This document shows, one piece after another, positions 19,753 to 39,689 of a stretch of 64,000 bases of DNA (positions are counted from its first letter, which is position 1; every line of letters begins with the position of its first letter). Under the pieces are notes generated by a model. That model had not been told where the DNA came from. It searched no databases and saw only the letters and a program-made list of their open reading frames with translations. The DNA lies in NCBI RefSeq assembly GCF_053078305.1, contig NZ_CP166879.1, one strand, 5' to 3'. The position numbers and the translations under genes are program-made.

Positions 19753-21810
19753 ATGAATATTATGACGTCCAAATGGGTTCAACTATCATCAATGCCCGGA
19801 AACTTTACCGTTAAAGTTTCCGGTGGTACAGCGGCATTTCTTGAGGCTCCTTTTCCTCCGGCTGAAACGAAAGGAGGAATGACATTTGCTGACTGTCTCA
19901 TCAGTTTTAATACACAGGATTGCCTGTGGGTAAGGCCAGTATCCGGTGATCCGAACGTGGAAATTACCGGAGCGGGTATTGGTGCTGTCATTCCGTTAAG
20001 TGCTGATGTTGCCGGTACTACTGAACCGTCAGACTGGGATAATGCTGAAACACATACCCGTCCGGCAGGAAATGAAACGGCTTCCAGCTCCCCTTCCTGG
20101 TATTACGTGATTGTTATAGCCGGTCAGTCCAATGCTTCATCTTATGGTGAAGGGTTGCCCCTGCCGGATTCTTATGATCGTCCTGATCCACGTATTATGC
20201 AGCTGGCACGCAGGAATACACAAACCCCCGGAGGTATTCCCTGCAAATACAATGAAATCATTCCAGCAGATCACTGCCTTCATGATGTTCAGAATATGAG
20301 TCTGCTGAACCATCCAAAAGCAGACCTGAAAAAAGGGCAGTATGGTTGTGTGGGTCAGGGACTTCATATTGCGAAAAAAGTATTACCGGTGATTCCTGCT
20401 GATGCCGGGATTTTACTGGTTCCCTGTGCCCGTGGCGGCTCTGCTTTTACAACCGGCGCAGTTGGCTCATTCGATCCGGCAAGTGGTGCAGCCGAGGCGT
20501 CACTACGCTGGGGAGTGGATACCCCACTGTATCAGGATCTTGTCAGTCGAACGAAAGCGGCACTTGAGGCGAATCCAAAGAATGTGCTGTTATCTGTCGT
20601 ATGGATTCAGGGGGAAGGAGACCTTAAAGCGACCCCGGCCCAGCATGGTGCCCAGTTTACTGCGATGGTGAAAAAATTCCGTGCGGATCTTGGTGCTTTC
20701 TCCGGTCAGTGTATTGGTGGTTCATCAGACAGTGTGCCGTGGTTATGTGGTGACACAACCTATGACTGGAAAGAGAAGAACCCGGCGGCATATGAAACCA
20801 TTTATAGCGGATATAAAAACCGGGCTTCCGAGAACATTCACTTTGTTCCACTGATGCACGATGAGTTCGGTAATAAAACCGCGACCAACCTGCCGGAGCA
20901 CGACCCGGATATCGCTTCTGCCGGGTATTATGGTGCGGAATCACGGGGAGATGGCAACTGGACAACAGCATCCAGGGCAACCCATTTTAGCTCCTGGGCG
21001 CGCCGTTTTCTGGTCTCAGATCGTTTTGCATCAGCAATTCTTAAATATGCAGGTCTGACCTCTGCATTTATTGCCGGTGTGGCCCCTGATGGTGAAGCCC
21101 TGCCTCAGCCCGCGCCGGGTGGAAAACCGGAAGCTCCGACAGGTAGTCAGCCAGGAAGCAGTGAGTCCCCCCAGCCGACATCCCCGTCACTCCGTACGCT
21201 GCTTTCACTTAAAGCATCAGCAGGGGAAGCCCCGGCTCAGGGATGGAAAATTACAGATGGTACAATCCAGCTGACGGACGAAGGTAAAGCGCTGACCGTA
21301 TCCAAACAAAGCGGAAAAACCTGGTCACTTACCCATGCGACCAGTGCTGCCGGAGAGCTGTTGCAGCATGGTGGTCAGTTGACCTGTAAATTCCGTCTGT
21401 CAGGTGAAGTAAAAGAAGGCCAGTTTGCTCTGGGTATTTACCTCCACACCGATACGGTCCCGGAAGGTGTAACCATGAGTGGTACAGGCACACCGTTCCT
21501 GATGGCGTATTATCTCCAGACAACAGGCGGCCAGTTAAATCTGATGCACCATAAAACAGGGGGGAATACGAAACTGGGATCATTTGGAGCCTACAATAAC
21601 CAGTGGCATACACTTGTCCTGAAGTTTACGGCGGGAAGTGCCCAGGTAACGCCTGTGCTGGATGGCACTCCGGGCCAGGCATTCCAGATGGTGAAAGATG
21701 CACTTTCCCCTGCCAAAGATACGCTGACACTGACAGATGTCACCAAAGGGGCAACTTATGGCGTGTCTTTTGAGAGCGTTGTCCTTGAGGTTAATACCCC
21801 TGCGGCATAA
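19753..21810 (+). CDS. SASA/DUF303-type carbohydrate esterase with C-terminal beta-sandwich (lectin-like) domain; accessory gene
   Basis: 685-aa ORF; GQSN motif (IAGQSNASSYGEG) about 120 aa from the N-terminus, typical of sialate-O-acetylesterase-like SGNH enzymes. No obvious signal peptide. Not part of the Mu core. Confidence 0.6.
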   Translation: MNIMTSKWVQLSSMPGNFTVKVSGGTAAFLEAPFPPAETKGGMTFADCLISFNTQDCLWVRPVSGDPNVEITGAGIGAVIPLSADVAGTTEPSDWDNAETHTRPAGNETASSSPSWYYVIVIAGQSNASSYGEGLPLPDSYDRPDPRIMQLARRNTQTPGGIPCKYNEIIPADHCLHDVQNMSLLNHPKADLKKGQYGCVGQGLHIAKKVLPVIPADAGILLVPCARGGSAFTTGAVGSFDPASGAAEASLRWGVDTPLYQDLVSRTKAALEANPKNVLLSVVWIQGEGDLKATPAQHGAQFTAMVKKFRADLGAFSGQCIGGSSDSVPWLCGDTTYDWKEKNPAAYETIYSGYKNRASENIHFVPLMHDEFGNKTATNLPEHDPDIASAGYYGAESRGDGNWTTASRATHFSSWARRFLVSDRFASAILKYAGLTSAFIAGVAPDGEALPQPAPGGKPEAPTGSQPGSSESPQPTSPSLRTLLSLKASAGEAPAQGWKITDGTIQLTDEGKALTVSKQSGKTWSLTHATSAAGELLQHGGQLTCKFRLSGEVKEGQFALGIYLHTDTVPEGVTMSGTGTPFLMAYYLQTTGGQLNLMHHKTGGNTKLGSFGAYNNQWHTLVLKFTAGSAQVTPVLDGTPGQAFQMVKDALSPAKDTLTLTDVTKGATYGVSFESVVLEVNTPAA

Positions 21811-21867
21811 TCGTGACGGCCGGGAATTTATCCGGCTGTAACATCAGTTAATAAGAGTGAGGCTTAT

Positions 21868-22047
21868 ATGACATATATAAACGTCTGCCTGCTGTATTTC
21901 TGCACGGTGGTTTGTTGTCTGTTGCTTGTCAGCGGTGGTTATAAAATTATTCGCAATTATTTTCGAAATAAAATTGATGCAGCTGCCGAGGAAAAGATAA
22001 AAAGCGGTGCTGTAATGCCGCAGCCGAAAGACTCCGGTCAGATTTAA
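21868..22047 (+). CDS. Small hydrophobic (probable membrane) peptide, 59 aa
   Basis: ATG with SD GAGTGAGG; N-terminus VCLLYFCTVVCCLLLV is strongly hydrophobic. Below the ORF-track length cutoff. Confidence 0.4.
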   Translation: MTYINVCLLYFCTVVCCLLLVSGGYKIIRNYFRNKIDAAAEEKIKSGAVMPQPKDSGQI

Positions 22048-22082
22048 TTTTTTGTGAACCAGAAAAGGAAAGGAGAATATTC

Positions 22083-22328
22083 ATGCCAGAGATTAAAGGC
22101 ACGGTTACTGAAGAGCTTGTCAAACAGGCACTTTATTCTGAAGAAGTGAACCGCGTGCTGAAGGCGCAGGTTCGCAAGGATTTTGAGGCACAAATCGACG
22201 CATATGTTGATGAAGTGCTGGCCCGAATGGTTGGCCATTCTCCGGCTGAAAACAGCACGGAGAATGAGCCTCAGCCCGTAGAGCAACCAGAGCCGGTTCA
22301 GCCCGGAACTGACAGTGCCATGATGTAA
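22083..22328 (+). CDS. Hypothetical acidic protein, 81 aa
   Basis: Strong SD (AAAGGAAAGGAGA) 6 nt upstream of the ATG. Confidence 0.45.
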   Translation: MPEIKGTVTEELVKQALYSEEVNRVLKAQVRKDFEAQIDAYVDEVLARMVGHSPAENSTENEPQPVEQPEPVQPGTDSAMM

Positions 22329-22402
22329 CAATACAAACCGACAGCTTCTCCTGTCGGTTTGATTTTCATGGGCGATGTATATACCAGTCAGAGGAAATAA
22401 TC

Positions 22403-22603
22403 ATGGACAAGAACAAAAAGCAGCCCGATACCAAAGGTCTGGAAATATTAAGCGCAGAAATTATCAATGCGCTACGTTCAGGACTTGATGAAAATACATT
22501 ACAGGATCGAAACTTCACCACTGCAATGTGGATAGCGATGCAGATCCTGTGTACCCCAAGATGCGCTATTTTTGCGGTTCGTGAGGGTCAGTTGACTCGC
22601 TGA
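22403..22603 (+). CDS. Hypothetical protein, 66 aa
   Basis: ORF with SD-like AGAGGAAA upstream. Confidence 0.4.
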   Translation: MDKNKKQPDTKGLEILSAEIINALRSGLDENTLQDRNFTTAMWIAMQILCTPRCAIFAVREGQLTR

Positions 22604-22772
22604 TTGCCCGAATTACATCAGAAAAGCACGCGTTCCATAATTGCATAGCTGATGAATCACCAGCTGTATGAAAAGAGGTAAAGACACAACTGGTGGATGT
22701 CATTGCTGCAATTGTGATATCAGCTGCAATTCGCGCAGCCTGTAACTTTTGGTCGGTGGTCAGTTTATCCAT
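22566..22772 (-). CDS. Hypothetical small protein, 68 aa (convergent with and overlapping the previous ORF)
   Basis: Minus-strand ORF; internal ATG (MDKLTTDQK...) preceded by AGGAGA. Confidence 0.3.
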   Translation of the reverse strand: MDKLTTDQKLQAARIAADITIAAMTSTSCVFTSFHTAGDSSAMQLWNACFSDVIRAISESTDPHEPQK

Positions 22773-22845
22773 TTTCTCCTGCCTGAACAGATGCATCTCT
22801 GCTTTACAGGAGGCCGGGGAATATCATAGGATACACCACGAGCTC

Positions 22846-23000
22846 AGAGTGAAGCATTGATGCAGTTTTTTACAGATTGACCCAGAATAGTTCGCGCTAT
22901 CTGAGTCGCCATTTATGTAGTCCCGAAGTAAAGCATTGATGCAAACTTGTCTAAATCGGCCCAGCATAGTTCCAGCTATGCTGGGTTTCCCTTTTATGTA
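22846..23000. repeat. Two tandem ~77-bp direct repeat units, each with AAGCATTGATGCA box plus hairpin plus TTTATGTAGT
   Basis: Copy 2 contains a perfect 10-bp inverted repeat CCCAGCATAG/CTATGCTGGG followed by a T-rich run; copy 1 is a degenerate version. Confidence 0.6.
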
Positions 23001-23184
23001 GTATCCTGTTGATTTGAAACATACTACATATACGCGCGATCCTACCTTCACTGGATAAAAAGTCAATAAAATGATCATTTTATGATCGTTTTCACCACCT
23101 AACTCTTCGTTTTCTTTAAGTAAATAATCACCGCCCTGAATCATTGTTGATGACTTTTCAATCTATTTGTTGTATCAATTAAAC

Positions 23185-23215
23185 AAATCGAATCGATCGT
23201 TTTTGTCGATCGATT
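23185..23215 (+). promoter_or_regulatory. GATC cluster upstream of com (putative Dam/OxyR-controlled mom promoter region)
   Basis: GATC at 23195 and 23208 within a short dyad; further GATC at 23038, 23073, 23084. Confidence 0.45.
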
Positions 23216-23258
23216 GCATGAGAAAGGCATCAACAACAAAGCAGGAGGTTATGCGGCC

Positions 23259-23459
23259 ATGTATCGAAACATACGGTGCCGACACTGCAATAAGCTACTG
23301 GCACGGGCCAGTTTCAGTTATCTGGAAGTAAAATGTCCGCGCTGTAAAACCCTCAATCAAATCACATCTCCGAGCGCCACAGAGCACCCCACATACACAA
23401 GGAAATCCTGTCGTGGGGAACAGAAAGCAAGTCACATCCCGTATCATCAGCACGCCTGA
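23259..23459 (+). CDS. com: Com zinc-finger translational activator of mom
   Basis: Motif [29 protein letters not shown]...EHPT aligns with the Mu Com C4 zinc finger as recalled; SD GCAGGAGG 10 nt upstream of the ATG at 23259. Confidence 0.75.
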
Positions 23460-24150
23460 ACTTATTCGCTATAACGACAATATCGTTGGTTATGGTTCCC
23501 GTGAGTTGCGGGTTGAGACAATAAGTTGCTGGCTGGCCAGACTGGTTATCGTCAATAAACATTACAGCCACCGTTTCGTAAATAACTCCTACCTTCATCT
23601 GGGCATATTTTCAGAACGGGAACTTGTTGGCGTAATGCAATGGGGTTACGCCCTTAACCCAAACAGTGGTGCACGCGTCGTAACGGGTACGCAGAACCGA
23701 GAATATATGGAGCTGAACCGGCTATGGATGCATGACTGTATGCCGAGAAACTCCGAATCAAGGGCAATCAGTTACGCGCTCAAGCTAATCAGGCAGCTTT
23801 ATCCGCAGGTACAGTGGGTTCAGTCGTTTGCAGATGAGCGTTGTGGCTGTCTTGGTGTCGTGTATCAGGCAAGCAATTTTGATTATGTAGGCAGCCATGA
23901 AACAATATTCTATGAACTTGATGGCGAGTGGTATCACGAGATTTGCAGGAATGCCATTAAACGAGGCGGACAACGAGGTGAACATCTGAGGGCTAATATC
24001 GACAGAGCCAGTGTGCATAAGTTCCGACAGTTTCGTTACATCCGGTTTCTGAACAAGAGGGCCAGAAAACGCCTCAACACAAAGCTATTCAAAGTCCAGC
24101 CTTACCCAAAACCACAAACAGTTAAAACTGGTTTGAAAGAGAGTGAATGA
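23413..24150 (+). CDS. mom: Mom-like DNA modification protein
   Basis: 245-aa ORF overlapping the com 3' end, last gene before the prophage right end as in Mu; start codon uncertain. Confidence 0.65.
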
Positions 24151-24295
24151 GCGCTTAAAAACTCATTCTAAAACTCAAAAGAAAAGCGCCGATTTAGTAT
24201 CAAATAAGTTGCGTATCGGCGTTTTTCAGCGGTATCAAATGAAATGCAAATCGGTATCAAAAAAATCGCCGCGCTATATGCCGCTGACCACAGCA
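24150..24295. other. Mu-like prophage right end (transposase-binding repeats) and junction with lambdoid Z remnant
   Basis: Repeated CGGTATC / GCGTTTTTCAGCGG motifs resembling MuA end-binding sites; sequence ends ...ACCACA (terminal CA) just before lambda-like coding sequence resumes. Confidence 0.35.
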
Positions 24296-24391
24296 TTTAA
24301 ACAGAATATTGAACGTATCCGGCGTGAACGCCTGCCAGAAGAACTGGCATATGCGCTGAAACAACAACTGAGGATTGCGATAAAACGATGA
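24296..24391 (+). pseudogene. 3' fragment of lambda Z-like tail gene, disrupted by the Mu-like insertion
   Basis: Short reading frame ending in ATGA overlap with the U start, as at a lambda Z/U junction; no N-terminal part present. Confidence 0.4.
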
Positions 24392-24783
24392 AACATACTG
24401 ATATCCGTGCAGCCGTACTGGATGCACTGGAGAAGCATGACACCGGGGCGACGCTGTTTGATGGTCGCCCCGCTGTTTTTGAGGAGGCGGATTTTCCGGC
24501 GGTCGCGGTTTATCTGACGGATGCAGAGTATACCGGTGAAGAGCTGGATGCTGATACCTGGCGGGCCACACTGCATATTGAGGTGTTTTTACCGGCACAG
24601 GTACCGGATTCAGAGCTTGATCAGTGGATGGAAAGCCGGATTTACCCGGCGATGGCGGCGATCCCTGCACTGGCAGGCATGATTACCACGATGGTTACGC
24701 AGGGCTATGAGTATCGTCGTGATGACGATATGGCATTGTGGAGCTCTGCAGATCTGACTTATTCCATTACATACGAGATGTGA
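24388..24783 (+). CDS. U: Minor tail protein U
   Basis: 131 aa, near-identical to lambda gpU as recalled ([22 protein letters not shown]...). Confidence 0.9.
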
Positions 24784-24790
24784 GGATGAT

Positions 24791-25540
24791 ATGGCAACAC
24801 CAAATCCCCTGGCGCCGGTAAAAGGTTCCGGCACCACGCTCTGGGTTTACACCGGTAAGGGCGATGCTTATGCAAACCCGCTGTCAGATGATGAGTGGAC
24901 GCGTCTGGCAAAAATAAAGGATCTGACCCCCGGCGAGATGACGGCGGAATCCTACGACGATAACTATCTGGATGATGAGGATGCTGACTGGGTATCCACC
25001 GGGCAGGGGCAGAAATCTGCCGGTGACACCAGTTTTACGCTGGCCTGGAAGCCCGGCGAGAAAGGGCAGCGTGATTTGATTGCCTGGTTTGACAGCAGTG
25101 AGACCCGGGCCTACAAAATCCGCTTCCCGAACGGTACGGTGGATGTGTTCCGTGGCTGGGTGAGCGCCATTGGTAAAGCGGTGACTGCCAAAGAAGTGAT
25201 TACCCGTACGGTAAAAATCACCAATATTGGTCGTCCGTCGCTGGCGGAGGATCGGGGAGAAATCACACCGGTCACCGGTATTACCGTGACGCCACTAACG
25301 GGGAATGTGGCAAAAGGTCAGAGCACCACCCTGACTGTGGCCGTTCAGCCGGAAGGCGCAACGGATAAAACATTCCGCGCAACGTCGGCAAATCAGAATT
25401 TCGCCACCATTACCGTGAAAGGGAACACGATCACCGTGAAAGGTGTTGCGGCAGGTAAAGCGCAGATCCCTGTTGTCACCGGCAACGGTGAGTTTGCGGC
25501 GGTGGCGGAGATCACCGTTACGGATGGCGCTGCGGGCTGA
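24791..25540 (+). CDS. V: Major tail protein V (with C-terminal Ig-like domain)
   Basis: 249 aa, lambda V-like N-terminus. Confidence 0.9.
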
Positions 25541-25556
25541 GGGGAGGAGATCAAGC

Positions 25557-25979
25557 ATGTTCCTGAAAACAGAACAATTTGAATATAACGGTGTGTCCGT
25601 CACGCTGTCGGAACTGTCCGCGCTGCAGCGGTTTGATTATATAAAGTTTGTTTCAGACGCAGCACAACAGGAGACAACGGAGCATGATGCCGTGCACATT
25701 AACCAGCGATATCTGGAAACGGCATCCCTGCTTGTGGCGATGTCGCTATGGCATTCCCATTCCCTCAAAGGCACTCTGGCCTCTCCGGAGACAGAGATGC
25801 AGCAGATCCGCCGTGAAGTGATGCTGGGATGGCCTGCTGATGCACTGAATCAGGCAACGAACCGGGTGCTTTATCTTTCAGGTATGCTGGATAACCGGCA
25901 CGATGCCGATCCTGAACAAACCGGGAAAGCAGAAGCGACTGAGCCGGTAACATCAAAAAAGCATTCGAAGGCGAGCTGA
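25557..25979 (+). CDS. G: Tail assembly chaperone G
   Basis: ATG at 25557 with SD GAGGGGAGGAG; about 140 aa. Confidence 0.85.
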   Translation: MFLKTEQFEYNGVSVTLSELSALQRFDYIKFVSDAAQQETTEHDAVHINQRYLETASLLVAMSLWHSHSLKGTLASPETEMQQIRREVMLGWPADALNQATNRVLYLSGMLDNRHDADPEQTGKAEATEPVTSKKHSKAS

Positions 25980-26419
25980 ACTTTGTCCTGAAACTGGCGC
26001 GTGAGATGGGGAGAGCCGACTGGCGCGCCATGCTTGCCGGGATGACATCCACCGAATATGCCGACTGGCGACGTTTTTACTGCACGCATTATTTTCAGGA
26101 TACCCAACTGGACGCTCATTTTTCCGGGCTGATGTACGCCGTACTCAGCCTGTTTTTTGGCGATCCGGATATGCATCCGGCGGATTTCAGTCTGCTTGCT
26201 CCAGCGTGTGAGGAAGAGCAGACGGAGATGCCGGACGAGGAAGAAATGCTGATGCAGAAAGCGACAGGAGTTGCCGGAGGCGTCCGGTTCGGAGGGGACG
26301 GGGGACGCGATATTTCACCTTCTGCGGATGTGGTGGATGTCAGCGAGGATGATGTTGCATTAATGATGGCTTCAGCGGGGATTTCCGGAGGTGTGAGATA
26401 TGTCCCAGCCAGCGGGTGA
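25557..26419 (+). CDS. T: Tail assembly chaperone G-T fusion via programmed -1 frameshift at 25955-25961
   Basis: T ORF is in the -1 frame; zero-frame heptamer A-AAA-AAG near the end of G. Confidence 0.7.
25955..25961 (+). other. Slippery heptamer A_AAA_AAG (-1 programmed frameshift site)
   Basis: Zero-frame codons TCA-AAA-AAG; the -1 frame continues uninterrupted into the T ORF. Confidence 0.7.
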
Positions 26420-29012
26420 TCTGGTTATTGATTTGAGTCTGGATGCGGCCCGGTTTGATGAACAGATGGCCCGGGTACGCCGTCATTTTTCCAGTCTGGA
26501 GGCGGATGCCAGAAAAACCGCCAGTACTGTTGAACAGGGGCTGAGCCGACAGGCGCTGGCTGCACAAAAAGCCGGGATATCAGTCGGACAGTATAAGGCT
26601 GCCATGCGCACACTGCCCGCACAGTTCACGGATATTGTCACTCAGCTTGCCGGTGGTCAGAATCCCTTCCTTATCATGCTGCAGCAGGGGGGGCAGATCA
26701 GCGATTCATTCGGTGGACCGCTCAGCCTGCTTACCCTGCTGAAGGAGGAACTTCTCGGGATCAGGGATGCCTCTGAATCATCAGAGGATTCGCTGTCAGA
26801 TACGGCAAATGCTCTGGCTGAAAATGCCCGGAATGCCGGTGAACTGGGACGATTTATGTCGGTGGCCCGTGTGGCGGCAGGTGGCGGGGTTGCCGTACTG
26901 GCCGCGCTTGCTGCTGCCGCCTGGCAGGCAGAGCAGGCTGACCGGGCCTTATTGCGTTCACTGACCCTGACCGGAGGGGCGGCTGCCACCACAACGGCCG
27001 AATTGTGGAAAATGGCCGGGGTGATCAGCGATGAAGCCGGTGGTGGTATCAGACAGGCGGCAGAAAATCTGGCCCGTCTGGCAGAAAGCGGGAAATATAC
27101 CGCCGGGCAGCTACGGATCATGGGGGAAACCTCTCAGAGATGGCTGCAGACGGTGGGGGACGATGCCGGGAAGGTGGAAAAAGCCTTTGAAGGGATTGCA
27201 GCAGATCCGGTGAAGGCGCTGGCCTCCCTGAATCAGCAGTATAACTTCCTGAGCGTTTCCCAGTTACGCCATATTGATGAGCTTGAGCGCACGAAAGGTA
27301 AACAGGCTGCGGTGACGGAGGCGATGTCCCTGTTTGCGGATGTTATGAATGCACGTCTGGAGCAACTTGATAAAGCGGCCACGCCGGTGGAAAAAATCTG
27401 GGACGATGTTAAAACCTGGACTTCTGACGCATGGGCATGGATAGGTGATCATACACTGGGGGCACTCAGTCTGATCACTGACGTGGTGGCAGGAACCGTT
27501 GAACAGGTGAAGCTGCTGCTTGTGCAGGGGGATCTGGCGCTGGCTGAATTTATTCAGTCAGCCTGGGAAACGACAAAGAATGTGCCCGGCGTTGGTGCGT
27601 TGTTTGGTGAACTGGCAGAAGAGAACCGCGTATTTATTGAGAAAACAAAACGCGATGAACTGGCGCTGAGAAAATCCATTGCGGAACGGGATGCGCGTAT
27701 ACGCCAGGGGGAAATGGGGTACATCAACCGTTCGCGTGCAACAGGCGTCAGCAAAGGTCCGGGGCAGCAGGAAGCCGTCAGCCGTCTGGCTGAAGAGCTG
27801 ACAGGTAAAAAGCATACATCACCGAAAACGCGCTCTGCCGGGGAGAGGGAAGAGGAGCAGGCAAGAGAGGCTCTGCTTGCCCTTGAAGCTGAACTCAGGA
27901 CGCTGGAAAAACACAGCGGTGCGAATGAGAAAATCAGCCGGCAACGCCGTGATTTATGGAAGGCGGAAAGTCAGTATGCGGTCCTGAAAGAGGCTGCCAC
28001 GAAACGACAGTTATCCGGGCAGGAAAAATCCCTGCTGGCCCATGAGAAAGAGACGCTGGAGTACAAACGCCAGCTGGCTGAGCTGGGCGACAAGGTTGAA
28101 TACCAGAAACGCCTGAATGAGCTGGCACAGCAGGCGGCACGGTTTGAAGAGCAGCAGAGCGCGAAGCAGGCCGCCATCAGCGCAAAAGCCCGTGGTCTCA
28201 CTGACCGTCAGGCGCAGCGGGAGTCTGAAGCGCAGCGTCTTCGTGACGTGTATGGCGATAATCCGCAGGCGCTGGCACAGGTCACCGGGGCACTGAAACA
28301 GACATGGGCGGATGAAGACATGCTGCGCGGTGACTGGCTGGCCGGGCTGAAGTCCGGCTGGGGCGAGTGGGCAGAAAGTGCGACGGACAGTTTTTCGCAG
28401 GTTAAAAGTGCTGCCACGCAGACCTTTGACGGTATTGCGCAGAATATGGCGGCGATGCTGACCGGTGCAGAGGCAGACTGGCGGGGATTCACCCGTTCGG
28501 TGCTGTCCATGATGACAGAAATCCTGCTTAAACAGGCCATGGTGGGAATTGTCGGGCGTATCGGCAGTGCCATTGGTGGTGCTTTCGGTGGTGGTGCATC
28601 TGCTTCCTCGGGGACGGCCATTGAGGCTGCGGCGGCGAACTTCCATTTCGCGACCGGAGGATTTACGGGGACGGGCGGCAAATATGAGCCTGCGGGGATA
28701 GTTCACCGCGGGGAGTTTGTTTTCACGAAAGAGGCAACCAGCCGGATAGGTGTGGGGAATCTTTACCGTCTGATGCGCGGGTATGCGGAAGGTGGTTATG
28801 TGGGTGCTGCCGGAAGTCCGGCGCAGATGCGGCGGGCGGAAGGTATTAATTTTAATCAGAACAATCACGTGGTGATTCAGAACGACGGTATCAACGGACA
28901 GGCGGGGCCGCAGCTGATGAAGGCGGTGTATGACATGGCCCGTAAGGGGGCGCAGGATGAACTCCGGCTGCAGTTACGTGATGGCGGTATGTTATCAGGG
29001 AGCGGGCGATGA
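26400..29012 (+). CDS. H: Tail tape measure protein H
   Basis: 870 aa; N- and C-terminal regions closely resemble lambda H. Confidence 0.9.
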   Translation: MSQPAGDLVIDLSLDAARFDEQMARVRRHFSSLEADARKTASTVEQGLSRQALAAQKAGISVGQYKAAMRTLPAQFTDIVTQLAGGQNPFLIMLQQGGQISDSFGGPLSLLTLLKEELLGIRDASESSEDSLSDTANALAENARNAGELGRFMSVARVAAGGGVAVLAALAAAAWQAEQADRALLRSLTLTGGAAATTTAELWKMAGVISDEAGGGIRQAAENLARLAESGKYTAGQLRIMGETSQRWLQTVGDDAGKVEKAFEGIAADPVKALASLNQQYNFLSVSQLRHIDELERTKGKQAAVTEAMSLFADVMNARLEQLDKAATPVEKIWDDVKTWTSDAWAWIGDHTLGALSLITDVVAGTVEQVKLLLVQGDLALAEFIQSAWETTKNVPGVGALFGELAEENRVFIEKTKRDELALRKSIAERDARIRQGEMGYINRSRATGVSKGPGQQEAVSRLAEELTGKKHTSPKTRSAGEREEEQAREALLALEAELRTLEKHSGANEKISRQRRDLWKAESQYAVLKEAATKRQLSGQEKSLLAHEKETLEYKRQLAELGDKVEYQKRLNELAQQAARFEEQQSAKQAAISAKARGLTDRQAQRESEAQRLRDVYGDNPQALAQVTGALKQTWADEDMLRGDWLAGLKSGWGEWAESATDSFSQVKSAATQTFDGIAQNMAAMLTGAEADWRGFTRSVLSMMTEILLKQAMVGIVGRIGSAIGGAFGGGASASSGTAIEAAAANFHFATGGFTGTGGKYEPAGIVHRGEFVFTKEATSRIGVGNLYRLMRGYAEGGYVGAAGSPAQMRRAEGINFNQNNHVVIQNDGINGQAGPQLMKAVYDMARKGAQDELRLQLRDGGMLSGSGR

Positions 29013-29338
29013 AAACCTTTCGCTGGAAAGTGAAGCCGGATATGGAGGTGAACTCGCAGCCGTCGGTGCGTGAAGTGCGTTTTGGTGACGGGTACTCACA
29101 GCGTATGGCGGCAGGGCTGAATGCTGACCTGAAAACATACCGGGTGATGCTTTCCGTGACCCGGGAGGAGGCCCGGCATCTGGAAGCGTTCCTGGCAGAG
29201 CACGGGGGCTGGAAGGCATTTTTGTGGAAGCCACCCTATGCATACCGGCAGATAAAGGTGACCTGTGCCGGGTGGTCTGCGCGGGTCGGGATGCTGCGCG
29301 TTGAGTTCAGCGCGGAGTTTAAGCAGGTGGTGAACTGA
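29009..29338 (+). CDS. M: Minor tail protein M
   Basis: 109 aa, lambda position. Confidence 0.85.
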   Translation: MKTFRWKVKPDMEVNSQPSVREVRFGDGYSQRMAAGLNADLKTYRVMLSVTREEARHLEAFLAEHGGWKAFLWKPPYAYRQIKVTCAGWSARVGMLRVEFSAEFKQVVN

Positions 29339-30036
29339 TGCAGGATATTCACGAAGAAACTCTTAACGAGTCGGTTAAGTCAGAGCAGTCACCGCGGGTG
29401 GTGCTCTGGGAAATCGACCTGACGGCGCAGGGCGGTGAGCGGTATTTTTTCTGCAATGAGCTGAATGAAAAAGGGGAGCCGGTGACCTGGCAGGGGCGTG
29501 AATATCAGGCGTACCCGATTGAGGGCAGCGGCTTTGAGATGAACGGAAAGGGCAGCAGTGCCCGCCCGTCGCTGACAGTGTCCAATCTTTTTGGGCTGGT
29601 CACCGGGATGGCGGAGGATTTGCAGAGCCTGGTGGGTGCCACGGTGGTCCGCCGCCGGGTGTATGCGCGTTTTCTGGATGCGGTGAATTTTGTGGCAGGC
29701 AATCCGGAGGCAGACCCTGAGCAGGAGCTGATGGACCGGTGGGTGGTGGAGCAGATGTCAGCGCTGACGGCCATGACGGCCTCGTTTGTGCTGGCGACAC
29801 CGACGGAGACGGACGGTGCGCTGTTTCCCGGTCGCATCATGCTGGCGAACACCTGTATGTGGGATTACCGGGGCGATGAATGCGGGTATAACGGTCCGGC
29901 AGTGGCGGATGAGTTCGACAACCCCACCACGGATATCCGGAAGGACAGATGCAGTAAATGCATGCGCGGGTGTGAGATGCGCGGCATGGTGGCTAATTTC
30001 GGCGGTTTCCTTTCCATTAATAAACTTTCGCAGTAA
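29338..30036 (+). CDS. L: Minor tail protein L
   Basis: 232 aa, lambda position. Confidence 0.85.
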   Translation: MQDIHEETLNESVKSEQSPRVVLWEIDLTAQGGERYFFCNELNEKGEPVTWQGREYQAYPIEGSGFEMNGKGSSARPSLTVSNLFGLVTGMAEDLQSLVGATVVRRRVYARFLDAVNFVAGNPEADPEQELMDRWVVEQMSALTAMTASFVLATPTETDGALFPGRIMLANTCMWDYRGDECGYNGPAVADEFDNPTTDIRKDRCSKCMRGCEMRGMVANFGGFLSINKLSQ

Positions 30037-30046
30037 ATCCCGTTTT

Positions 30047-30790
30047 ATGACACAGACTGAATCAGCGATTCTGGCGCATGCCCGGCGGTGTGCGCCAGCG
30101 GAGTCGTGCGGCTTCGTGATAAGCACCCCGGAGGGCGAACGGTACCAGCCCTGCGTGAATATCTCCGCAGAGCCGGAGGCGTATTTTCGTATTGCACCGG
30201 AAGACTGGCTGCGGGCAGATATGCAGGGGGAGATTGTGGCGCTGGTCCACAGTCATCCCGGTGGTCTGCCCTGGCTGAGCGAGGCGGACCGGCGGCTGCA
30301 GATAAAGAGTGCCCTGCCCTGGTGGCTGGTCTGCCGGGGCGACATTCACCGGTTCCGCTGTGTGCCGCACCTGACCGGACGGCGCTTTGAACACGGTGTG
30401 ACGGACTGTTACAGCCTGTTCCGGGATGCATACCATCTGGCGGGGATAACGCTGCCGGATTTTGTGCGTGAGGATGACTGGTGGCGCAACGGCCAGAACC
30501 TGTACCTGGACAACCTGGCGGACAACGGCTTTTACCGGGTGTCTCCGTCCTGTGCACAGGCGGGCGATATCCTGCTGTGCTGCTTTGGTTCATCGGTGCC
30601 GAATCATGCCGCCATTTACTGTGGCAACGGTGAACTGCTTCACCATATACCTGAACAACTGAGTAAACGGGAGAGGTATTCTGAAAAATGGCAACGACGA
30701 ACGCATTCTGTCTGGCGTCACCGCCACTGGTCCGTATCTGCCTTCACGGGGATTTACAACGATTTGGTCGCCGCATCAGCCTGTATGTGA
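30047..30790 (+). CDS. K: Tail assembly protein K
   Basis: ATG at 30047 (MTQTESAILAHARRC...), 247 aa. Confidence 0.8.
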   Translation: MTQTESAILAHARRCAPAESCGFVISTPEGERYQPCVNISAEPEAYFRIAPEDWLRADMQGEIVALVHSHPGGLPWLSEADRRLQIKSALPWWLVCRGDIHRFRCVPHLTGRRFEHGVTDCYSLFRDAYHLAGITLPDFVREDDWWRNGQNLYLDNLADNGFYRVSPSCAQAGDILLCCFGSSVPNHAAIYCGNGELLHHIPEQLSKRERYSEKWQRRTHSVWRHRHWSVSAFTGIYNDLVAASACM

Positions 30791-31368
30791 ACACGGCAGC
30801 GGAGGCCATACGTGCCCTGTCACTGCAGGTGCCGGGATTCCGCGGTCAGATGAACGAAGGCTGGTACCGGATACGTATTGCCGGTGAGGATACCGCGCCG
30901 GAGGCGGTGTATGCCCGTCTTCACGAACAACTGGGTGAGGGAGCGGTCATCCACATTGTACCGCGACTGGCCGGAGCCGGGGGAAATGGTGTTTTTCAGG
31001 TGGTGCTGGGGGCAGCAGCCATCGTGGGCTCTTTCTTCACAGCCGGTGCAACGATGGCGTTGTGGGGCGCAGCCCTGAGTGCCGGAGGGCTGACTGCCAC
31101 CACGATGCTGTTCTCACTGGGTGCCAGCATGATACTGGGTGGTGTGGCTCAGATGCTGGCCCCGAAGGCAAAGACGCCGGAGTACAAAAGTACGGATAAC
31201 GGTAAACAGAACACGTATTTTTCGTCACTGGACAACATGATTGCCCAGGGTAACCCGATGCCGGTACCTTACGGTGAAATGCTGGTTGGTTCACGACGGA
31301 TATCCCAGGACATTAGCACCCGTGATGAGGGCGGAGACGGGAAAGTGGTGGTTATCGGACGGGGATAA
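30688..31368 (+). CDS. I: Tail assembly protein I
   Basis: 226 aa, overlaps the K 3' end as in lambda. Confidence 0.8.
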   Translation: MATTNAFCLASPPLVRICLHGDLQRFGRRISLYVNTAAEAIRALSLQVPGFRGQMNEGWYRIRIAGEDTAPEAVYARLHEQLGEGAVIHIVPRLAGAGGNGVFQVVLGAAAIVGSFFTAGATMALWGAALSAGGLTATTMLFSLGASMILGGVAQMLAPKAKTPEYKSTDNGKQNTYFSSLDNMIAQGNPMPVPYGEMLVGSRRISQDISTRDEGGDGKVVVIGRG

Positions 31369-31609
31369 AAATAAAAAAATCCCGCAGAGTTAGTGGAGCT
31401 GCGGGAAATAACGATGAAGATTAATGTTATGGAGTTATTTTTTTGGGCAGAAAAACAGTAACGCAGCGTCATTATAGCGGCTACAGGCAATTGCCGGAAA
31501 TGTGAAGAATTTCAGAAATTTTATTCCGTCATGACACAGGCACCCTCCGGGGTGCCTGTTGTTTTTGGGCATAAACAGATTCAGACATCAGACAGGAGAG
31601 GGGGACAGA

Positions 31610-34600
31610 GTGGGTAAAGGGGGCGGCAAGGGGCACACACCGCGTGAGGCGAAGGACAATCTCAAATCCACGCAGATGATGAGCGTGATTGATGCCATTG
31701 GTGAGGGACCGGTGGAAGGTCCGGTGAAGGGACTGCAGAGTATTCTGGTGAACAAAACCCCGCTGACGGACACGGACGGTAATCCCGTGATACACGGTGT
31801 GACCGCCGTCTGGCGCGCCGGGGAGCAGGAGCAGACACCGCCGGAAGGCTTTGAGTCCTCCGGGGCAGAAACCGCACTGGGCGTGGAGGTGACGAAGGCA
31901 AAGCCGGTGACGCGCACCATCACGTCAGCGAACATTGACCGTCTGCGGGTCACCTTCGGGGTGCAGTCACTGGTGGAGACCACCTCAAAGGGTGACCGTA
32001 ATCCCTCTTCTGTCCGCCTGCTGATTCAGCTTGAGCGTAACGGGCACTGGGTGACGGAGAAGGATATCACCATTAACGGCAAGACCACCTCGCAGTACCT
32101 GACGTCTGTGATTCTGAATAATCTCCCTGAGCGCCCCTTTAACATCCGGATGGTCAGGGAGACGGCGGACAGCACCACGGACCAGCTGCAGAACAGAACG
32201 CTGTGGTCGTCATACACCGAAATCATCGATGTGAAACAGTGCTACCCGAACACGGCCATTGTGGGGCTGCAGGTGGATGCGGAGCAGTTTGGTGGCCAGC
32301 AGCTGACGGTGAACTACCATATCCGTGGTCGCATCATTCAGGTGCCGTCAAACTATGACCCGGAAAAACGCACCTACAGCGGTATCTGGGACGGGAGTCT
32401 GAAACCGGCATACAGCAATAACCCGGCCTGGTGCCTGTGGGACATGCTGACCCACCCGCGCTACGGCATGGGAAAACGCCTGGGGGCCGCGGATGTGGAC
32501 AAGTGGGCACTGTATGCCATCGGGCAGTACTGCGACCAGACGGTCCCGGATGGTTTCGGGGGAACAGAGCCGCGGATGACTTTCAATGCGTACCTGTCAC
32601 AGCAGCGTAAGGTGTGGGATGTCCTGGGGGATTTCTGCTCGGCGATGCGCTGTATGCCGGTATGGAACGGCCAGACGCTGACGTTCGTTCAGGACCGTCC
32701 GTCGGATGTGGTGTGGCCGTACACCAACAGCGATGTGGTGGTGGATGATAACGGCGTGGGGTTCCGCTACAGCTTCAGTGCCCTGAAGGACCGGCACACG
32801 GCGGTGGAGGTGAATTACACCGACCCGCAGAACGGCTGGCAGACCTCCACGGAACTGGTGGAAGACCCGGACGCCATCCTGCGCTACGGACGCAACCTGC
32901 TGAAGATGGATGCGTTTGGCTGTACCAGCCGCGGTCAGGCCCACCGTGCCGGACTGTGGGTGATAAAGACCGAACTGCTGGAAACGCAGACGGTGGATTT
33001 CACGCTCGGGTCACAGGGGCTGCGGCATACGCCCGGTGACATCATTGAAATCTGTGATAACGACTATGCCGGGACCCTGACCGGCGGACGCATCCTGTCC
33101 ATTGATGCCGCCAGCCGCACACTGACGCTGGACCGTGAGGTGACACTGCCGGAAGCAGGGACATCGACGGTGAACCTGATTAACGGCAGCGGTAAGCCGG
33201 TGCGCGTGGACATCACTGCACACCCCGCGCCGGACCGGATACAGGTCAGCGCCCTGCCGGATGGCGTGGAGACATACGGTGTGTGGGGACTCTCCCTGCC
33301 GTCACTGCGTCGTCGCCTGTTCCGCTGTGTTTCCATCCGGGAAAACACGGACGGCACTTTTGCCATCACGGCAGTGCAGCACGTACCGGAAAAAGAAGCC
33401 ATTGTGGATAACGGGGCTCGCTTTGAGCCGCTGTCCGGTTCACTGAACAGCGTTATCCCGCCGGCAGTGCAGCACCTCACGGTGGAGGTGAGTGCCTCAG
33501 ACGGCCAGTATCTGGCGCTGGCGAAATGGGACACGCCGCGGGTGGTGAAGGGCGTGCGCTTCAGTCTGCGCCTGACCAGCGGAAACGGTGAAAACAGCCG
33601 CCTGGTGACCACCGCCATCACTGCCGACACGGAGCACCGTTTCAGTGGCCTGCCTCTGGGGGAATACACCCTGACGGTCAGGGCGATAAACAGCTACGGC
33701 CAGCAGGGCGAACCTGCCACCACCGCGTTCCGGATTAATGCGCCTGCAGCACCGGCCAGCATTGAGCTGACGCCGGGGTATTATCAGATAACAGCAGTAC
33801 CGGTGCTGGCGGTGTATGACCCGACGGTACAGTTTGAGTTCTGGTTCTCGGAGGCAAAAATCGCAGACACATCTCAGGTGGAAACCTCTGCCCGTTATCT
33901 GGGGACAGGCAGCCAGTGGAGCGTCTCCGGCCCGCACATCAAGCCGGGGAAGGATTTCTGGTTTTATGTGCGCAGCGTTAACCTGGTGGGGAAATCTGCG
34001 TTTGTGGAAGCCAGTGGCCGGGCGAGCAATGATGCAGAAGGGTATCTGGGGCTGTTTCGGGAAAAGATAGGAAAACTGCATCTGGCACAGGGGATGTGGG
34101 AGCTGATTGATAACAGCCAGCTTGACAATGAGATGGCGGAGATGAAGACCACCATCACCGAAACCCGCAATGAAATCACGCAGACGGTCAGTAAAACCCT
34201 GGAAGACCAGAGCGCCACCATACAGCAGATACAGCGGGTGCAGACAGACACAAATAACGACCTGGCTGCGCTGTACATGCTGAAGGTGCAGAAAACAAAA
34301 AACGGCATTCCGTATGTTGCCGGTATAGGTGCGGGGATTGAGGATGCTGATGGCCAGCCCCTGAGCAATATTCTGCTGCAGGCGGACCGTATCGCGATGA
34401 TTAACCCGGAGAACGGCAACACCACGCCGCTGTTTGTGGCGCAGGGGAATCAGCTGTTCATGAACGATGTGTTCCTGAAGCGGTTGTTTGCAGTGAGCAT
34501 CACCTCGTCCGGCAATCCCCCGACGTTTTCCCTGACGCCGGACGGGAAACTGACGGCCCGCAATGCTGATATCAGCGGACATATCAGTGCGAACTCGGGC

Positions 34601-35077
34601 ACGCTGAATAATGTCGTGATAGCGGAGAACTGTACGATAAATGGCACGCTGAAAGCGGAGAACATTATTGGTGATCTTGTGAAATGTGCAGGGGTGGCTT
34701 TTCCGGTGGATGGTAGTTACCTTGCGAACGGTACACGAACGCTGACGGTATATGACGATCACAGCTTTGACCGGCAGATTATAATCCCGCCGATAATCTA
34801 TGTCGGGTCAAAACAGGAATCCCGTACCAGTAATGACATCTGGACAGAGTGCTTCCTGCATGTTGATCAGAACGGACGCCGGATTTATTCAGGCAGGTCA
34901 GTGACAGAGCCGGGAATTTTCAGCGGGATCATCGATATGCCAGCCGGAGGTGGTCATATCACCCTGAGTTTTACCGTAAGTTCACGACGTCAGAACGGGA
35001 GTTTTGGCAGTTCACGTATCAGTAACCTTCAGGCGATAGTGGTGAAGAAAAACAGCGCGGGGATCAGTATCCGCTGA
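31610..35077 (+). CDS. J: Tail tip / host specificity protein J
   Basis: GTG start (GTG GGT AAA GGG...) after SD AGGAGAGGGGG; 1155 aa with strong lambda-J similarity and a divergent C-terminal receptor-binding region. Confidence 0.9.
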
Positions 35078-35275
35078 ACATCGCGCCCCGGGATTGCCGG
35101 AAGGAGACAAAAACCGTACAGTATGCGCGGGTGCCTTTGGCTGATGGCCGGAGGGAACACCTGAAGGCCGGAAAGACGAAGGCCCCGGACAAACATTCAT
35201 GTTTAACCCGAGGCCTGACTTTCGATCTTCAGCAAATTGAAGGTTAGCGCCTCTCCGTAAAAGGAGCAAGCGTTT

Positions 35276-35416
35276 ATGTCGCAAAAACCGTTAAAAACCA
35301 CCGTGATTTGTACCACGGTAGTGCTCATTATCTGGATCACCCACACTTCACTGTGCGAGTTCCGGTTCCGGATAGCGGGCGCGGAGATTGCGGCGTTCTT
35401 ACAGTGTAAGCAGTAA
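35276..35416 (+). CDS. Hok/Gef-family type I toxin-like small membrane protein, 46 aa, in the lom position
   Basis: MSQKPLKTTVICTTVVLIIWITHTSLCEFRFRIAGAEIAAFLQCKQ carries the Hok signature (TM helix, then SLCE-x-R-x-R...E-I/V-AAF...C); SD AAGGAG 9 nt upstream. Confidence 0.6.
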   Translation: MSQKPLKTTVICTTVVLIIWITHTSLCEFRFRIAGAEIAAFLQCKQ

Positions 35417-35513
35417 GAAACCGTGGCGTGGGAGAATATCCCCCGCCGACCGGTTGCTGAGGGTGGTCAGCCGGATGGCACCGTTTTAACACCAACAAAC
35501 CACAAATATTACC

Positions 35514-35547
35514 GCAGGCCGGGAAACCGGTACTGCGGTTTTTTTAT
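35514..35547 (+). terminator. Rho-independent terminator downstream of the hok-like gene
   Basis: CCGCAG...CTGCGG stem followed by TTTTTTT. Confidence 0.55.
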
Positions 35548-35558
35548 GGGGGAAATCC

Positions 35559-37292
35559 ATGACAGTCAGAATATCGGGTGTGCTGAAGGATGGTACGGGA
35601 AAAGCGGTACCGGGATGCACGATAGAGCTGAAAGCGCGCCGCACAACGGAGACGGTGATTGTCACCACGGTGGCGTATGGTCAGCCGGGGGAAACCGGCA
35701 GTTACAGTATGGATGTTGAGCCGGGGTTGTACCGGGTGACGCTGAACACGGAAGGGTACGCGCCGTCATATGTGGGTGACATTCTGGTGAAGGCGGATTC
35801 TGCACCGGGAACGCTGAATAAATTTCTGATGGACCTGGAAGACGCACAGTATTACCCGAAAGCCCTTGCAGAGCTGGAAGCGGTGGCAGCGGAAATCCTG
35901 AAGCGTGCAGAAGCGTCAGCGGCCAGTGCAGAGGAAGCGAAGAAACGGGCAGAGAATGCGCGGGGACCGAAGGGGGATAAGGGAGACACCGGGCCACAGG
36001 GGATTCCCGGGCCAAAAGGCGATACCGGCGAGCGGGGGCCAAAGGGTGAGCGTGGTGAGACAGGGCCACAGGGGCTTCAGGGTGTGAAAGGTGAACGGGG
36101 AGAGAAGGGCGAAAAAGGCGAGCCGGGAGGGCCGGATGCGACGACGGCACAGAAGGGAATTGTGCAGTTAAGCAGCGCAACGGACAGTGATGATGAAACG
36201 AAGGCAGCCACGCCGAAAGCGGTGAAAGCGGCAATGGACAAAGCGGACGGATGCCTGGAGAAAGCGAAAAACGGTGACGATATCCCGGATAAGGTGAAGT
36301 TTCTGAACACCGTGGGAGCAGCCAGAGTATACGGGCGGGACATTCATACGGGGGCCGGTGAATGGACCACGAGTGAGTTTGTCGCCTGGCTGAAAGAAAA
36401 AGGGGCATTTGACCAGCCTTACTGGATGATGAAGGCATCACTGCTTGCGTCAATGAATAAAGTCATCACAGATGTCGGACCGGGAAAACTCAATCTGGGT
36501 GGCTGTGTCATTGAGGTGATGGGAACGTATGAGGCTGCCATAGTCCGGGTCACCATTGGCGAATACGGTGCAACGGGGTTTATTAATGGCACGGTCTGTA
36601 CCTGTACGGTTTACGGCGACACACAGTATTTCCACTGGCGGGTGGATTACAGCACAAAAAACAAACCGGATACGGTCAGCCAGCGGGATGCCAGTACGAC
36701 GCAGAAAGGTGTGGTGCAGTTAAGCAGTGATACTGGCAGTAATGACGAAACAAAGGCAGCCACGCCGAAGGCCGTGAAGGCGGCAATGGATGTGGCAAAT
36801 GAAGCGAAAACAAAGGCAGAAGAGGCTGCAGCAGGAGGTGGTGTTCCCGGTCCGAAAGGAGAGAAAGGTGACCCCGGAGCACAGGGTCCGAAAGGTGAAA
36901 CGGGAGCAACAGGCCCCGCTGGTCCGCGGGGAGCGCAGGGACCGAAAGGGGAGAAAGGCGACCCCGGTCCCAGAGGTGAGCGTGGAGAAACCGGGCCGAT
37001 GGGGCCGCCGGGGGCATCAGGAGATGACGGGAAGAGTCGTGTCATGGGCTTCAGGCTGGGGAATCCGGTAACGTATGAGTTGCAGGAGGGGGACCATGGC
37101 TGGTCAGTTAATCTGGCTGATGGTTCAGTCATTACAGGGCTTTCGGGGAACACTCAGGGCGGCGTCAGCCGTGTTACAACGATTTACTACAGGCCGCTGC
37201 AGATGACGTTTGATGGCTCTCACTGGCGCACCGTTGGTGTTGGTGAGTATGTGTCGTCAGGAGCGCCGGGGCGTGAGTATTTTTCATTATAA
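35559..37292 (+). CDS. stf: Side tail fibre protein with two collagen-like Gly-X-Y tracts
   Basis: 577 aa; [37 protein letters not shown] and a second GXY run. Confidence 0.85.
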
Positions 37293-37333
37293 AGCGCATC
37301 ACTTGTCAGACATGTAACCGGGAGGACTTACAG

Positions 37334-38005
37334 ATGCACATAAAGAATTTCAGACAATACACGCCGGAAAATCCGGATGTGCCGGGTGCGATGTACCTGA
37401 AATCAGAGGATGGTCAGGACTGGTATGAGTGTCAGTCGTTATTTTCAGCAGAGACGCTGAAGGTGGTTTATAACAGTGCCGGGGTCATTACCGGCATCAG
37501 CAGGGTGGCATCAGTTCTGTGGCCTGTGAATCAGAGTGTGGTGGAGGTGGCGGATACGGAAGAAAACCGCAAAGCTGACATCTCCGGGCGCTGGGGTTTT
37601 GACGGGGAGAAAATCACGGACCTGCTGACCGCGGAGAAAGCGCGAGGGATGAAGGGCGATGAAATTAACGCCTGGCGTAATGCGATGGAAGCGGCGAACT
37701 ACACGTTTGAGCACAATGGGCGTAAATGGGACTACGGGAAGTCAACGCAGACGCGTCTTGAGCCGTCGGTGGCGGCAGCGAAAGCGGGGAAACTGCCGGA
37801 GGCGTTTTTCTGGACGGATGCGGAAAACAATGATGTGCCGGTGACAGCAGACGAGCTTATTGCGCTGAGTGAAGCGGCAGAGCAGGCGATGTTTACCAAA
37901 GGGATGGAAATCCACGTCCGGCAGCGCACCATGAAGAAAGAGCTGGAAAAGCTGACCAGTGAGGATGAGATACTGGCATACAGGGTTGGCTGGGCACAGG
38001 AATAA
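37334..38005 (+). CDS. tfa: Tail fibre assembly protein
   Basis: 223 aa, lambda Tfa-like, immediately after stf. Confidence 0.8.
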   Translation: MHIKNFRQYTPENPDVPGAMYLKSEDGQDWYECQSLFSAETLKVVYNSAGVITGISRVASVLWPVNQSVVEVADTEENRKADISGRWGFDGEKITDLLTAEKARGMKGDEINAWRNAMEAANYTFEHNGRKWDYGKSTQTRLEPSVAAAKAGKLPEAFFWTDAENNDVPVTADELIALSEAAEQAMFTKGMEIHVRQRTMKKELEKLTSEDEILAYRVGWAQE

Positions 38006-38317: not shown

Positions 38318-39601
38318 ATGGATTTCCAGTTATATTCGCTCGGCGCAGCGTTAGTGTTTCATGAAATATTTTTTCCTGAATCATCAACGGCAATGGCGTT
38401 AATTTTGGCAATGGGAACCTACGGTGCAGGTTATGTGGCGCGTATTGTCGGAGCATTTATTTTCGGCAAAATGGGCGACAGAATAGGGCGTAAAAAAGTG
38501 CTCTTTATTACCATCACCATGATGGGGATCTGTACCACCTTAATTGGTGTGTTACCGACCTATGCACAGATTGGTGTTTTTGCCCCCATCTTGCTGGTGA
38601 CGCTGCGTATTATTCAGGGGTTGGGTGCAGGTGCGGAAATTTCCGGTGCCGGTACGATGCTGGCGGAATATGCGCCAAAAGGTAAGCGCGGAATTATCTC
38701 CTCATTTGTAGCTATGGGAACTAACTGCGGAACCTTGAGCGCAACGGCAATCTGGGCCTTTATGTTCTTCATTCTCAGTAAAGAGGAACTGCTGGCGTGG
38801 GGATGGCGTATACCGTTCCTGGCGAGCGTTGTCGTGATGGTCTTTGCTATCTGGTTGCGTATGAATCTGAAAGAAAGCCCGGTCTTTGAGAAGGTTAACG
38901 ACAGCAACCAACCGACAGCAAAACCTGCACCTGCTGGTAGCATGTTCCAGAGCAAATCCTTCTGGCTGGCAACAGGGCTGCGTTTTGGTCAGGCAGGTAA
39001 CTCCGGGTTAATTCAGACTTTCCTTGCAGGCTATTTAGTACAGACGTTATTGTTTAACAAAGCAATTCCAACAGATGCATTGATGATCAGTTCGATTCTC
39101 GGCTTTATGACCATTCCGTTCCTTGGTTGGTTATCCGATAAAATTGGTCGCCGGATCCCGTATATTATTATGAATACCTCTGCGATTGTGCTGGCATGGC
39201 CAATGCTTTCTATCATCGTAGATAAAAGCTATGCCCCGAGCACCATTATGGTTGCACTGATTGTGATTCATAACTGTGCGGTGCTGGGATTATTTGCTCT
39301 GGAAAACATTACCATGGCAGAAATGTTCGGCTGTAAAAACCGCTTTACCCGGATGGCTATTTCTAAAGAAATTGGTGGTCTTATCGCTTCCGGTTTTGGT
39401 CCTATCCTTGCGGGTATTTTCTGCACCATGACGGAATCCTGGTATCCGATCGCCATTATGATCATGGCATATTCAGTGATTGGTTTAATCTCTGCGCTGA
39501 AAATGCCAGAAGTGAAAGACCGTGATTTAAGTGCGCTGGAAGACGCTGCGGAGGATCAACCGCGTGTTGTAAGAGCTGCGCAACCTTCCAGAAGTCTGTA
39601 A
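38318..39601 (+). pseudogene. ydfJ: MFS (MHS-family) transporter, 5'-truncated at the prophage junction
   Basis: 427-aa ORF begins inside the first transmembrane region with no N-terminal motif; prophage tail genes lie directly upstream. Confidence 0.7.
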
Positions 39602-39689
39602 ATCCTCAATCCCTTCTCTTACCGGAGAGGGGATTTTTATTCATATAACAAAACATGTAGCTTGCCATATTTAAATTTAAGGAATTGTT

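Follow-up and report, generated by a model that had tools for sequence, protein, structure and literature searches.

A Mu-like transposable phage is inserted in gene Z of a lambdoid prophage at ydfJ in the 64,000-nucleotide stretch analysed here (contig NZ_CP166879.1 of assembly GCF_053078305.1; hereafter the window), a reading to which a probability of about 0.93 is assigned. Nested prophages of this kind, a Mu-like element within a lambdoid Z, had been proposed in a preliminary description of the sequence, and the proposal now has both junctions behind it, the left one taken from the draft genome of E. coli 48, together with a Z gene rebuilt from its two halves. At the right junction, the features of the window are as follows.

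23259-23459, + strand: com, with PF10122 (Zn_ribbon_Com) at the equal offset in relatives, annotated 'Com family' in RefSeq relatives
23413-24150, + strand: mom, the identical protein carrying PF25680 (Mom) in other assemblies
24143-24391, + strand: chance fusion ORF (82 aa) that crosses the junction from Mu-like sequence into the frame of Z
24197-24278, + strand: Mu-like right end (attR) with three transposase-site-like repeats, last base 24278
24279-24282, + strand: TGCC, right copy of the 4-bp target-site duplication (the left junction ends ...GGCGGTGCC; intact Z reads GGCGGTGCCGCTG)
24279-24391, + strand: 3' fragment of Z, nt 467-579 of 579, with the break in codon 157 of 192
24388-24783, + strand: U, intact, the exact protein present in 1265 collection blocks, PF06141 (Phage_tail_U)

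The Mu-like element closes with com, a translational activator of mom, and with mom itself, the product of which is annotated in RefSeq relatives as a 'Mom family adenine methylcarbamoylation protein'. The 128-bp tail 3' of mom holds three copies of the repeat GTATCAAA(T/A), at positions 24197, 24232 and 24254, and TTGATAC lies on the opposite strand at +19, +41 and +76 from the right end. Based on a query of the 2 kb upstream, 234 records from complete E. coli genomes match the Mu-like right arm beside varied genes, with matches that stop between 24278 and 24290 and most commonly, as well as earliest, at 24278, where the terminal sequence reads ...ATCGCCGCGCTATA. The same right end is shared by all of the fully examined insertions (8 of 8). 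A 1-kb query across the junction matched 3738 complete-E. coli records, all of them only from 24279 on (the best matches 100% identical and annotated 'phage tail protein / minor tail U'), and no record spanning the junction was present among the 5426 complete E. coli genomes, nor did an exact scan of species-representative genomes return a match.

On the far side of the junction, identity to an intact lambdoid Z begins in the alignment at T24279, and the fragment is identical at 113 of 113 nt to the intact Z of Z1323MEC0001, in register with U. The open frame ending at 24391 overlaps the start of the 131-aa ORF of U, with the Z stop and the U start sharing ATGA; intact Z genes that match the fragment carry PF06763 (Minor_tail_Z), as do the full-length neighbours, and overlap U by the same ATGA as in lambda. 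The identical U protein adjoins an intact Z in all ten of the matches listed (of 1265 collection blocks), and comparison with close lambdoid relatives that have no Mu-like element, which had been put forward as a check, found Z and U contiguous. The 82-aa fusion ORF shows no sign of being a gene, and exact look-ups of the three products it could give rise to, of 82, 50 and 37 aa, returned no record. The initial observation of Mom and Mu-end-like repeats followed by a Z-like 3' fragment and an intact U is borne out to the base, and chance resemblance is excluded, as an exact transposon end joins an exact gene interior. In many relatives of the element, a 350-aa C5 DNA methylase is found in the place of Mom.

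The first 24 kb of the window belong to the Mu-like element and include its late genes, an invertible segment and a set of cargo genes.

1-24278, + strand: right 24.3 kb of a Mu-like (Sp18-type) transposable prophage, collinear with the complete 39.4-kb element in bcsA of STEC2018-607
15-18618, + strand: Mu-type late genes (portal, MuF, gpG, protease, major head, sheath, tube, tape measure, baseplate, tail fibre, fibre assembly)
17655-19039, no strand assigned: invertible G-like segment, with 158-bp inverted repeats at 17655-17812 and 18882-19039
19102-19662, + strand: Gin-like serine invertase (Pfam Resolvase/HTH_7 on the identical gene; NCBIfam serine-recombinase matches)
19753-22328, + strand: cargo genes DUF6645 (SASA esterase domain), DUF1378 and DUF826 (Pfam on the identical protein)

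No late ORF is interrupted, and each agrees in length with its annotated counterpart in relatives (Pfam names were taken from identical or near-identical proteins), in agreement with the earlier impression of an intact late region. Position 1 of the window corresponds to the boundary of the terminase and portal genes in the complete relative, and by collinearity with STEC2018-607 a further ~15.1 kb, comprising the left end and, as predicted, the repressor and transposase genes, lies upstream. The left-end genes of four complete relatives encode a repressor, a Ner-like protein, a Mu-type transposase ('Mu transposase C-terminal domain') and a MuB-type ATPase ('AAA family ATPase'), and PF02316, PF09299 and PF09077 occur at the left end of the nearest Mu-like relative found. 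Relatives are present in 267 of the 5426 complete E. coli genomes (best identity, 97.9%), with late regions of ~97% identity in many O157:H7, O145 and O91 genomes. Given the O157 matches, the window element is presumed to belong to the Sp18 group. Sp18 is listed as the Mu-like prophage of E. coli O157:H7 Sakai (PMC6379469). Exact look-ups of the Mom and DUF6645 proteins identified 20 further assemblies in which the right arm lies beside different chromosomal genes. Collectively, the sites occupied by this right arm are many and unrelated, with over 20 different genes alongside and no fixed attachment site, which is the behaviour of a transposing phage.

Two smaller features of the element recur elsewhere. 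The same trio of cargo genes is located between Q and the holin of a lambdoid prophage of OkiPb01711 (locus L042, 17510-20048), and the DUF6645-DUF1378-DUF826 cargo appears to be common to unrelated phage types. Between MuF and gpG, RefSeq places a 'tRNA-OTHER' on the opposite strand in relatives (locus L002, 22361-22448; window ~2913-3030), and ARAGORN predicted no tRNA anywhere in the window.

The left junction was read in the draft genome of E. coli 48 (IMG 2617271340 = GCA_000736735.1). GCA_000736735.1 is the assembly of E. coli strain 48 (PMC5323612). The exact tape-measure protein of the window is on record in one contig only, JPQG01000014.1 of that assembly, which aligns to window positions 16400-34658 (18.3 kb) with 0 mismatches and 10 one-run indels and contains the identical junction of Mom with the 3' part of Z and U. 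A second, draft assembly therefore has the right junction of the window, which is no artefact of a single assembly. The left junction was predicted from the left ends of the four complete relatives and a suspected 4-bp duplication (GATGGCGGTGCC followed by TRTAACCAGGTRAATCATTTGATAC), and an exact-pattern scan of IMG/VR returned exactly one match, contig UViG_2617271340_000001. This contig has, in order, the 3' part of the portal gene, C, D, E, FI, FII, Z nt 1-470 and the Mu-like left end. As predicted, the sequence directly after Z nt 1-470 is that of the Mu-like left end, of which 472 nt are available (TGTAACCAGGTAAATCATTTGATAC...; TGTAACCAGGTAAATCATTTGATACC...). The right junction is also present in IMG/VR as UViG_2617271340_000003, base-for-base the same as JPQG01000014.1 (both 21,104 bp), and both junctions therefore belong to one genome.

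The 5' and 3' parts of Z share TGCC, and removal of one copy restores an ORF of 579 nt and 192 codons, the product of which is identical to an intact Z at 188 of 192 residues. The 5' part of Z with a 5-bp target duplication had been anticipated at the Mu-like left end upstream of the window; the Z fragment is found there in E. coli 48, while the duplication has 4 bp and not 5. An intact Z beside U elsewhere in the genome had been named as grounds for rejecting the nesting, but such a pair would not count against it because the strain has several lambdoid prophages. At the left junction, the 5' part of Z is fused to three codons of the Mu-like end, giving a 160-aa product. Eight predicted fusion proteins of this type were absent from the protein collection (the real N-terminus of Z differs at 2-4 residues from the two variants used for the predictions), and a homologue search with the Z N-terminus returned no recognisable cluster of truncated Z.

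The E. coli 48 contigs break off within the Mu-like element, where the window also begins, and the two junctions are on separate contigs; we infer that a single uninterrupted copy bridges both, the left one having been read in a draft of the window's strain or of one nearly identical to it. E. coli 48 has a second Mu-like copy, with yciO and the trp operon next to it (JPQG01000005.1; right end, 10866). It differs from the window copy by 10 mismatches in ~9.8 kb (99.9% identity) and has the invertible fibre segment flipped relative to the window. This second copy could be the result of transposition within the lineage or of a second infection. A contig from SRR32865915, reached by a walk with the MuF protein and considered as an upstream extension of the window, was rejected as a different insertion (8 mismatches in 6.1 kb and another 30-nt flank). 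The nearest relative of the window copy is this Logan contig, SRR32865915_4327, which stops exactly 30 nt past the Mu-like left end in a flank that corresponds to neither the Z nor the yciO side.

The length of the duplication is a property of the family. Eight insertions were read at both ends (loci L002, L023, L024, L025, L044 with the window, L048/L049, L052/L053 and L054/L055), with HCP4S3_I4 excluded from the count because its left end was absent from the expected place. All eight have a 4-bp target duplication (CGAG, GTGA, GGCG, TGCT, TGCC, GGCG, CCCC and TTTC), a fifth base would match in two of the eight only, and the base preceding each right-hand repeat is always the final A of the element. 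The targets split by these insertions are bcsA, paaA, an ABC ATPase gene, torZ, a lateral flagellar gene, a hydrolase gene, a mobile-element region and Z. Six copies have TGTAACC as the left terminus and two have TATAACC, the right terminus is ...GCTATA in all eight, and TTGATAC motifs occur at +19, +114 and +166 from the left end, inverted relative to the right-end set. Judged by sequence and placement, the TTGATAC motifs are putative transposase sites at both ends of the element.

Phage Mu has one outer site and two spaced sites at its left end and three close sites at its right end, a layout that the end motifs of the Mu-like element resemble. The family further shares with Mu near-random integration by transposition into many genes, the genes for a MuA-type transposase, a MuB-type ATPase, a repressor and a Ner-like protein (at the left end of the relatives), the order of the late genes, an invertible fibre segment with a Gin-like invertase, and com-mom at the right end. 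The differences are the extra cargo of DUF6645, DUF1378 and DUF826, and the ends themselves, as Mu has a 5-bp duplication and TG...CA termini, whereas the Mu-like element has 4 bp and a right end of ...TATA-3'. The element works like Mu, yet it differs in two textbook traits of Mu. In a more speculative reading, the family would form a lineage of its own among transposable phages, with a 4-bp stagger in target cutting, TA termini and continuing movement in the strain (two 99.9% identical copies). Both the 4-bp duplication and the TA ends matter for the automatic finding of ends and for comparative work on MuA-type transposases.

In the proposed history, a Mu-like phage would have integrated by DDE transposition into codon 157 of Z in the lambdoid prophage at ydfJ, its transposase joining the ends of the element to target phosphates 4 bp apart. 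Repair would then have duplicated TGCC, leaving an element of ~39 kb that now stands between the head genes with Z nt 1-470 on one side and Z nt 467-579 with the remaining tail genes on the other. It is very unlikely that the Mu-like right end instead came to lie beside the 3' part of Z by a secondary rearrangement, either a transposition-associated adjacent deletion or inversion or a recombination between Mu-like copies, with the head genes no longer across the element. The strain has two Mu-like copies that are 99.9% identical, the left half of a nested copy in OkiPb01711 is gone, together with lambdoid late genes, near IS30/IS3, and the window stops short of the Mu-like left end, all of which would fit such an event; the reciprocal left junction, with the same TGCC and no loss of Z, is however the signature of one simple insertion. 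Further, both copies have the same orientation on the K-12 map (based on their right flanks and the gene order), and recombination between same-facing copies would delete ~300 kb, not swap flanks. A later flank swap is unlikely, given that the 4-bp repeats match and that both copies face the same way.

Less probable again is a lambdoid prophage that was already a tail-only remnant, cut within Z, with the Mu-like element inserted at or near its edge. Defective lambdoid remnants are common at the ydfJ site, Qin of K-12 among them. Against a remnant, the left junction is abutted by a run of genes from the 3' part of B through C, D, E, FI and FII to Z nt 1-470, and the halves of Z fit without a gap, their overlap consisting of the 4-bp duplication alone, such that the left junction refutes this history unless the left contig is misassembled. 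An assembly chimera, in which the end of a Mu-like contig was misjoined to a lambdoid tail module, is scarcely credible: the genome has each partner more than once, with two copies of the Mu-like element and several lambdoid prophages, but the join falls at the exact terminal base of the element and outside any shared sequence, an independent draft assembly has the same junction, and the left junction matches with a duplicated TGCC.

With the Mu-like phage inserted in Z, the remainder of the lambdoid prophage in the window consists of the whole tail module downstream of U (24791-38005, + strand), which is followed by the chromosome.

24791-25540, + strand: V (this and the following calls to I from draft-contig gene calls and Pfam)
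25557-25979, + strand: G
to 26419, + strand: T
26400-29012, + strand: H
29009-29338, + strand: M
29338-30036, + strand: L
30047-30790, + strand: K
30787-31368, + strand: I
31610-35077, + strand: J, which passes the NCBIfam lambda_TipJ cut-off
35559-37292, + strand: side fibre (draft-contig gene calls, Pfam)
37334-38005, + strand: fibre assembly (draft-contig gene calls, Pfam)
38318-41150, + strand: ydfJ and ydfI, chromosomal, at the prophage end (annotation under matches; family matches)

The integration site at ydfJ is that of the Sakai prophage Sp11, and window positions 40000-64000 are core chromosome, 98.7-99.3% identical to E. coli chromosomes. The separation of the lambdoid head genes from the tail module, a consequence foreseen in the preliminary description, is confirmed by the two junctions, with the heads and Z nt 1-470 on the left and the rest of the tail on the right. 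The last 36 codons of Z (157-192) are detached from the 5' part by ~39 kb. In lambda, Z is needed for infectious tails, and a packaging unit that is longer by ~39 kb exceeds the capacity of a lambda-type head. Because Z is truncated, the distance between packaging sites is increased by ~39 kb and the portal gene is split (see below), the lambdoid prophage is, as judged from lambda biology, very likely unable to produce infectious particles. Neither half of Z shows decay, which suggests that the insertion is recent.

The Mu-like insertion in Z is not the sole defect of the lambdoid prophage, as portal gene B is also broken. In the E. coli 48 lambdoid prophage with the Mu-like insertion, portal gene B is interrupted after codon ~275 by an element of ~11-12 kb (UViG_2617271340_000001, ~5480-12763, minus strand), which lies >20 kb upstream of the window start. 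The interrupting element, a PICI-like satellite, has genes for a tyrosine integrase, an AlpA-type regulator, an Icd-like protein, a primase and an SSB, as well as for a major capsid protein, a small terminase and a decoration protein. The satellite recurs at that codon, in another portal allele, in a second lambdoid prophage of E. coli 48 (L045, ~1276-13096). This arrangement is also found in SCEC020022 (NZ_CP032892.1, 14001-24821), the one complete genome checked, where RefSeq calls the flanking portal halves pseudogenes. Its integrase variant occurs in 60 complete E. coli genomes, and related satellites with other integrases sit at other sites. A search of the literature found no specific description of satellites in portal genes, which is weak evidence of absence.

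It is doubtful that the satellite is both switch-like, its helper being headless until the satellite excises, and undescribed; that portal codon ~275 serves as its attachment site is far more likely. If undescribed, a satellite in the portal gene would bear on how satellites stay linked to their helpers. On this reading, the lambdoid prophage at ydfJ is a three-layer stack of a lambdoid prophage, a Mu-like phage and a satellite, and not a single accident.

Nesting of a Mu-like phage in a lambdoid prophage is ordinary and of a known kind, and OkiPb01711 (NZ_AP042673.1, ~2595873-2632000) provides a second case, now decayed. There, the right end of an element of the same Mu-like family falls within a lambdoid tail-fibre gene that has tccP and espJ as neighbours. 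The OkiPb01711 copy has lost its left half, along with the lambdoid genes from lysis to tail, and has IS30/IS3 at the break, while both junctions of the window copy are clean. No specific account of nested Mu-like and lambdoid prophages was found in the literature, again weak evidence of absence. Landing in prophages is as random insertion and weak selection predict, with prophages serving as tolerant landing sites for random insertions, and the ydfJ locus provides a base-level record that a transposable phage can disable a resident lambdoid prophage. For annotation pipelines, the locus is a caution, as one 'prophage region' here represents two or three elements. In JNEC-KY203 (NZ_AP045179.1, 3223000-3263650), a Mu-like copy is located between genes for Icd-like and YlcI proteins and a helix-turn-helix regulator gene, and probably lies inside another satellite or prophage.
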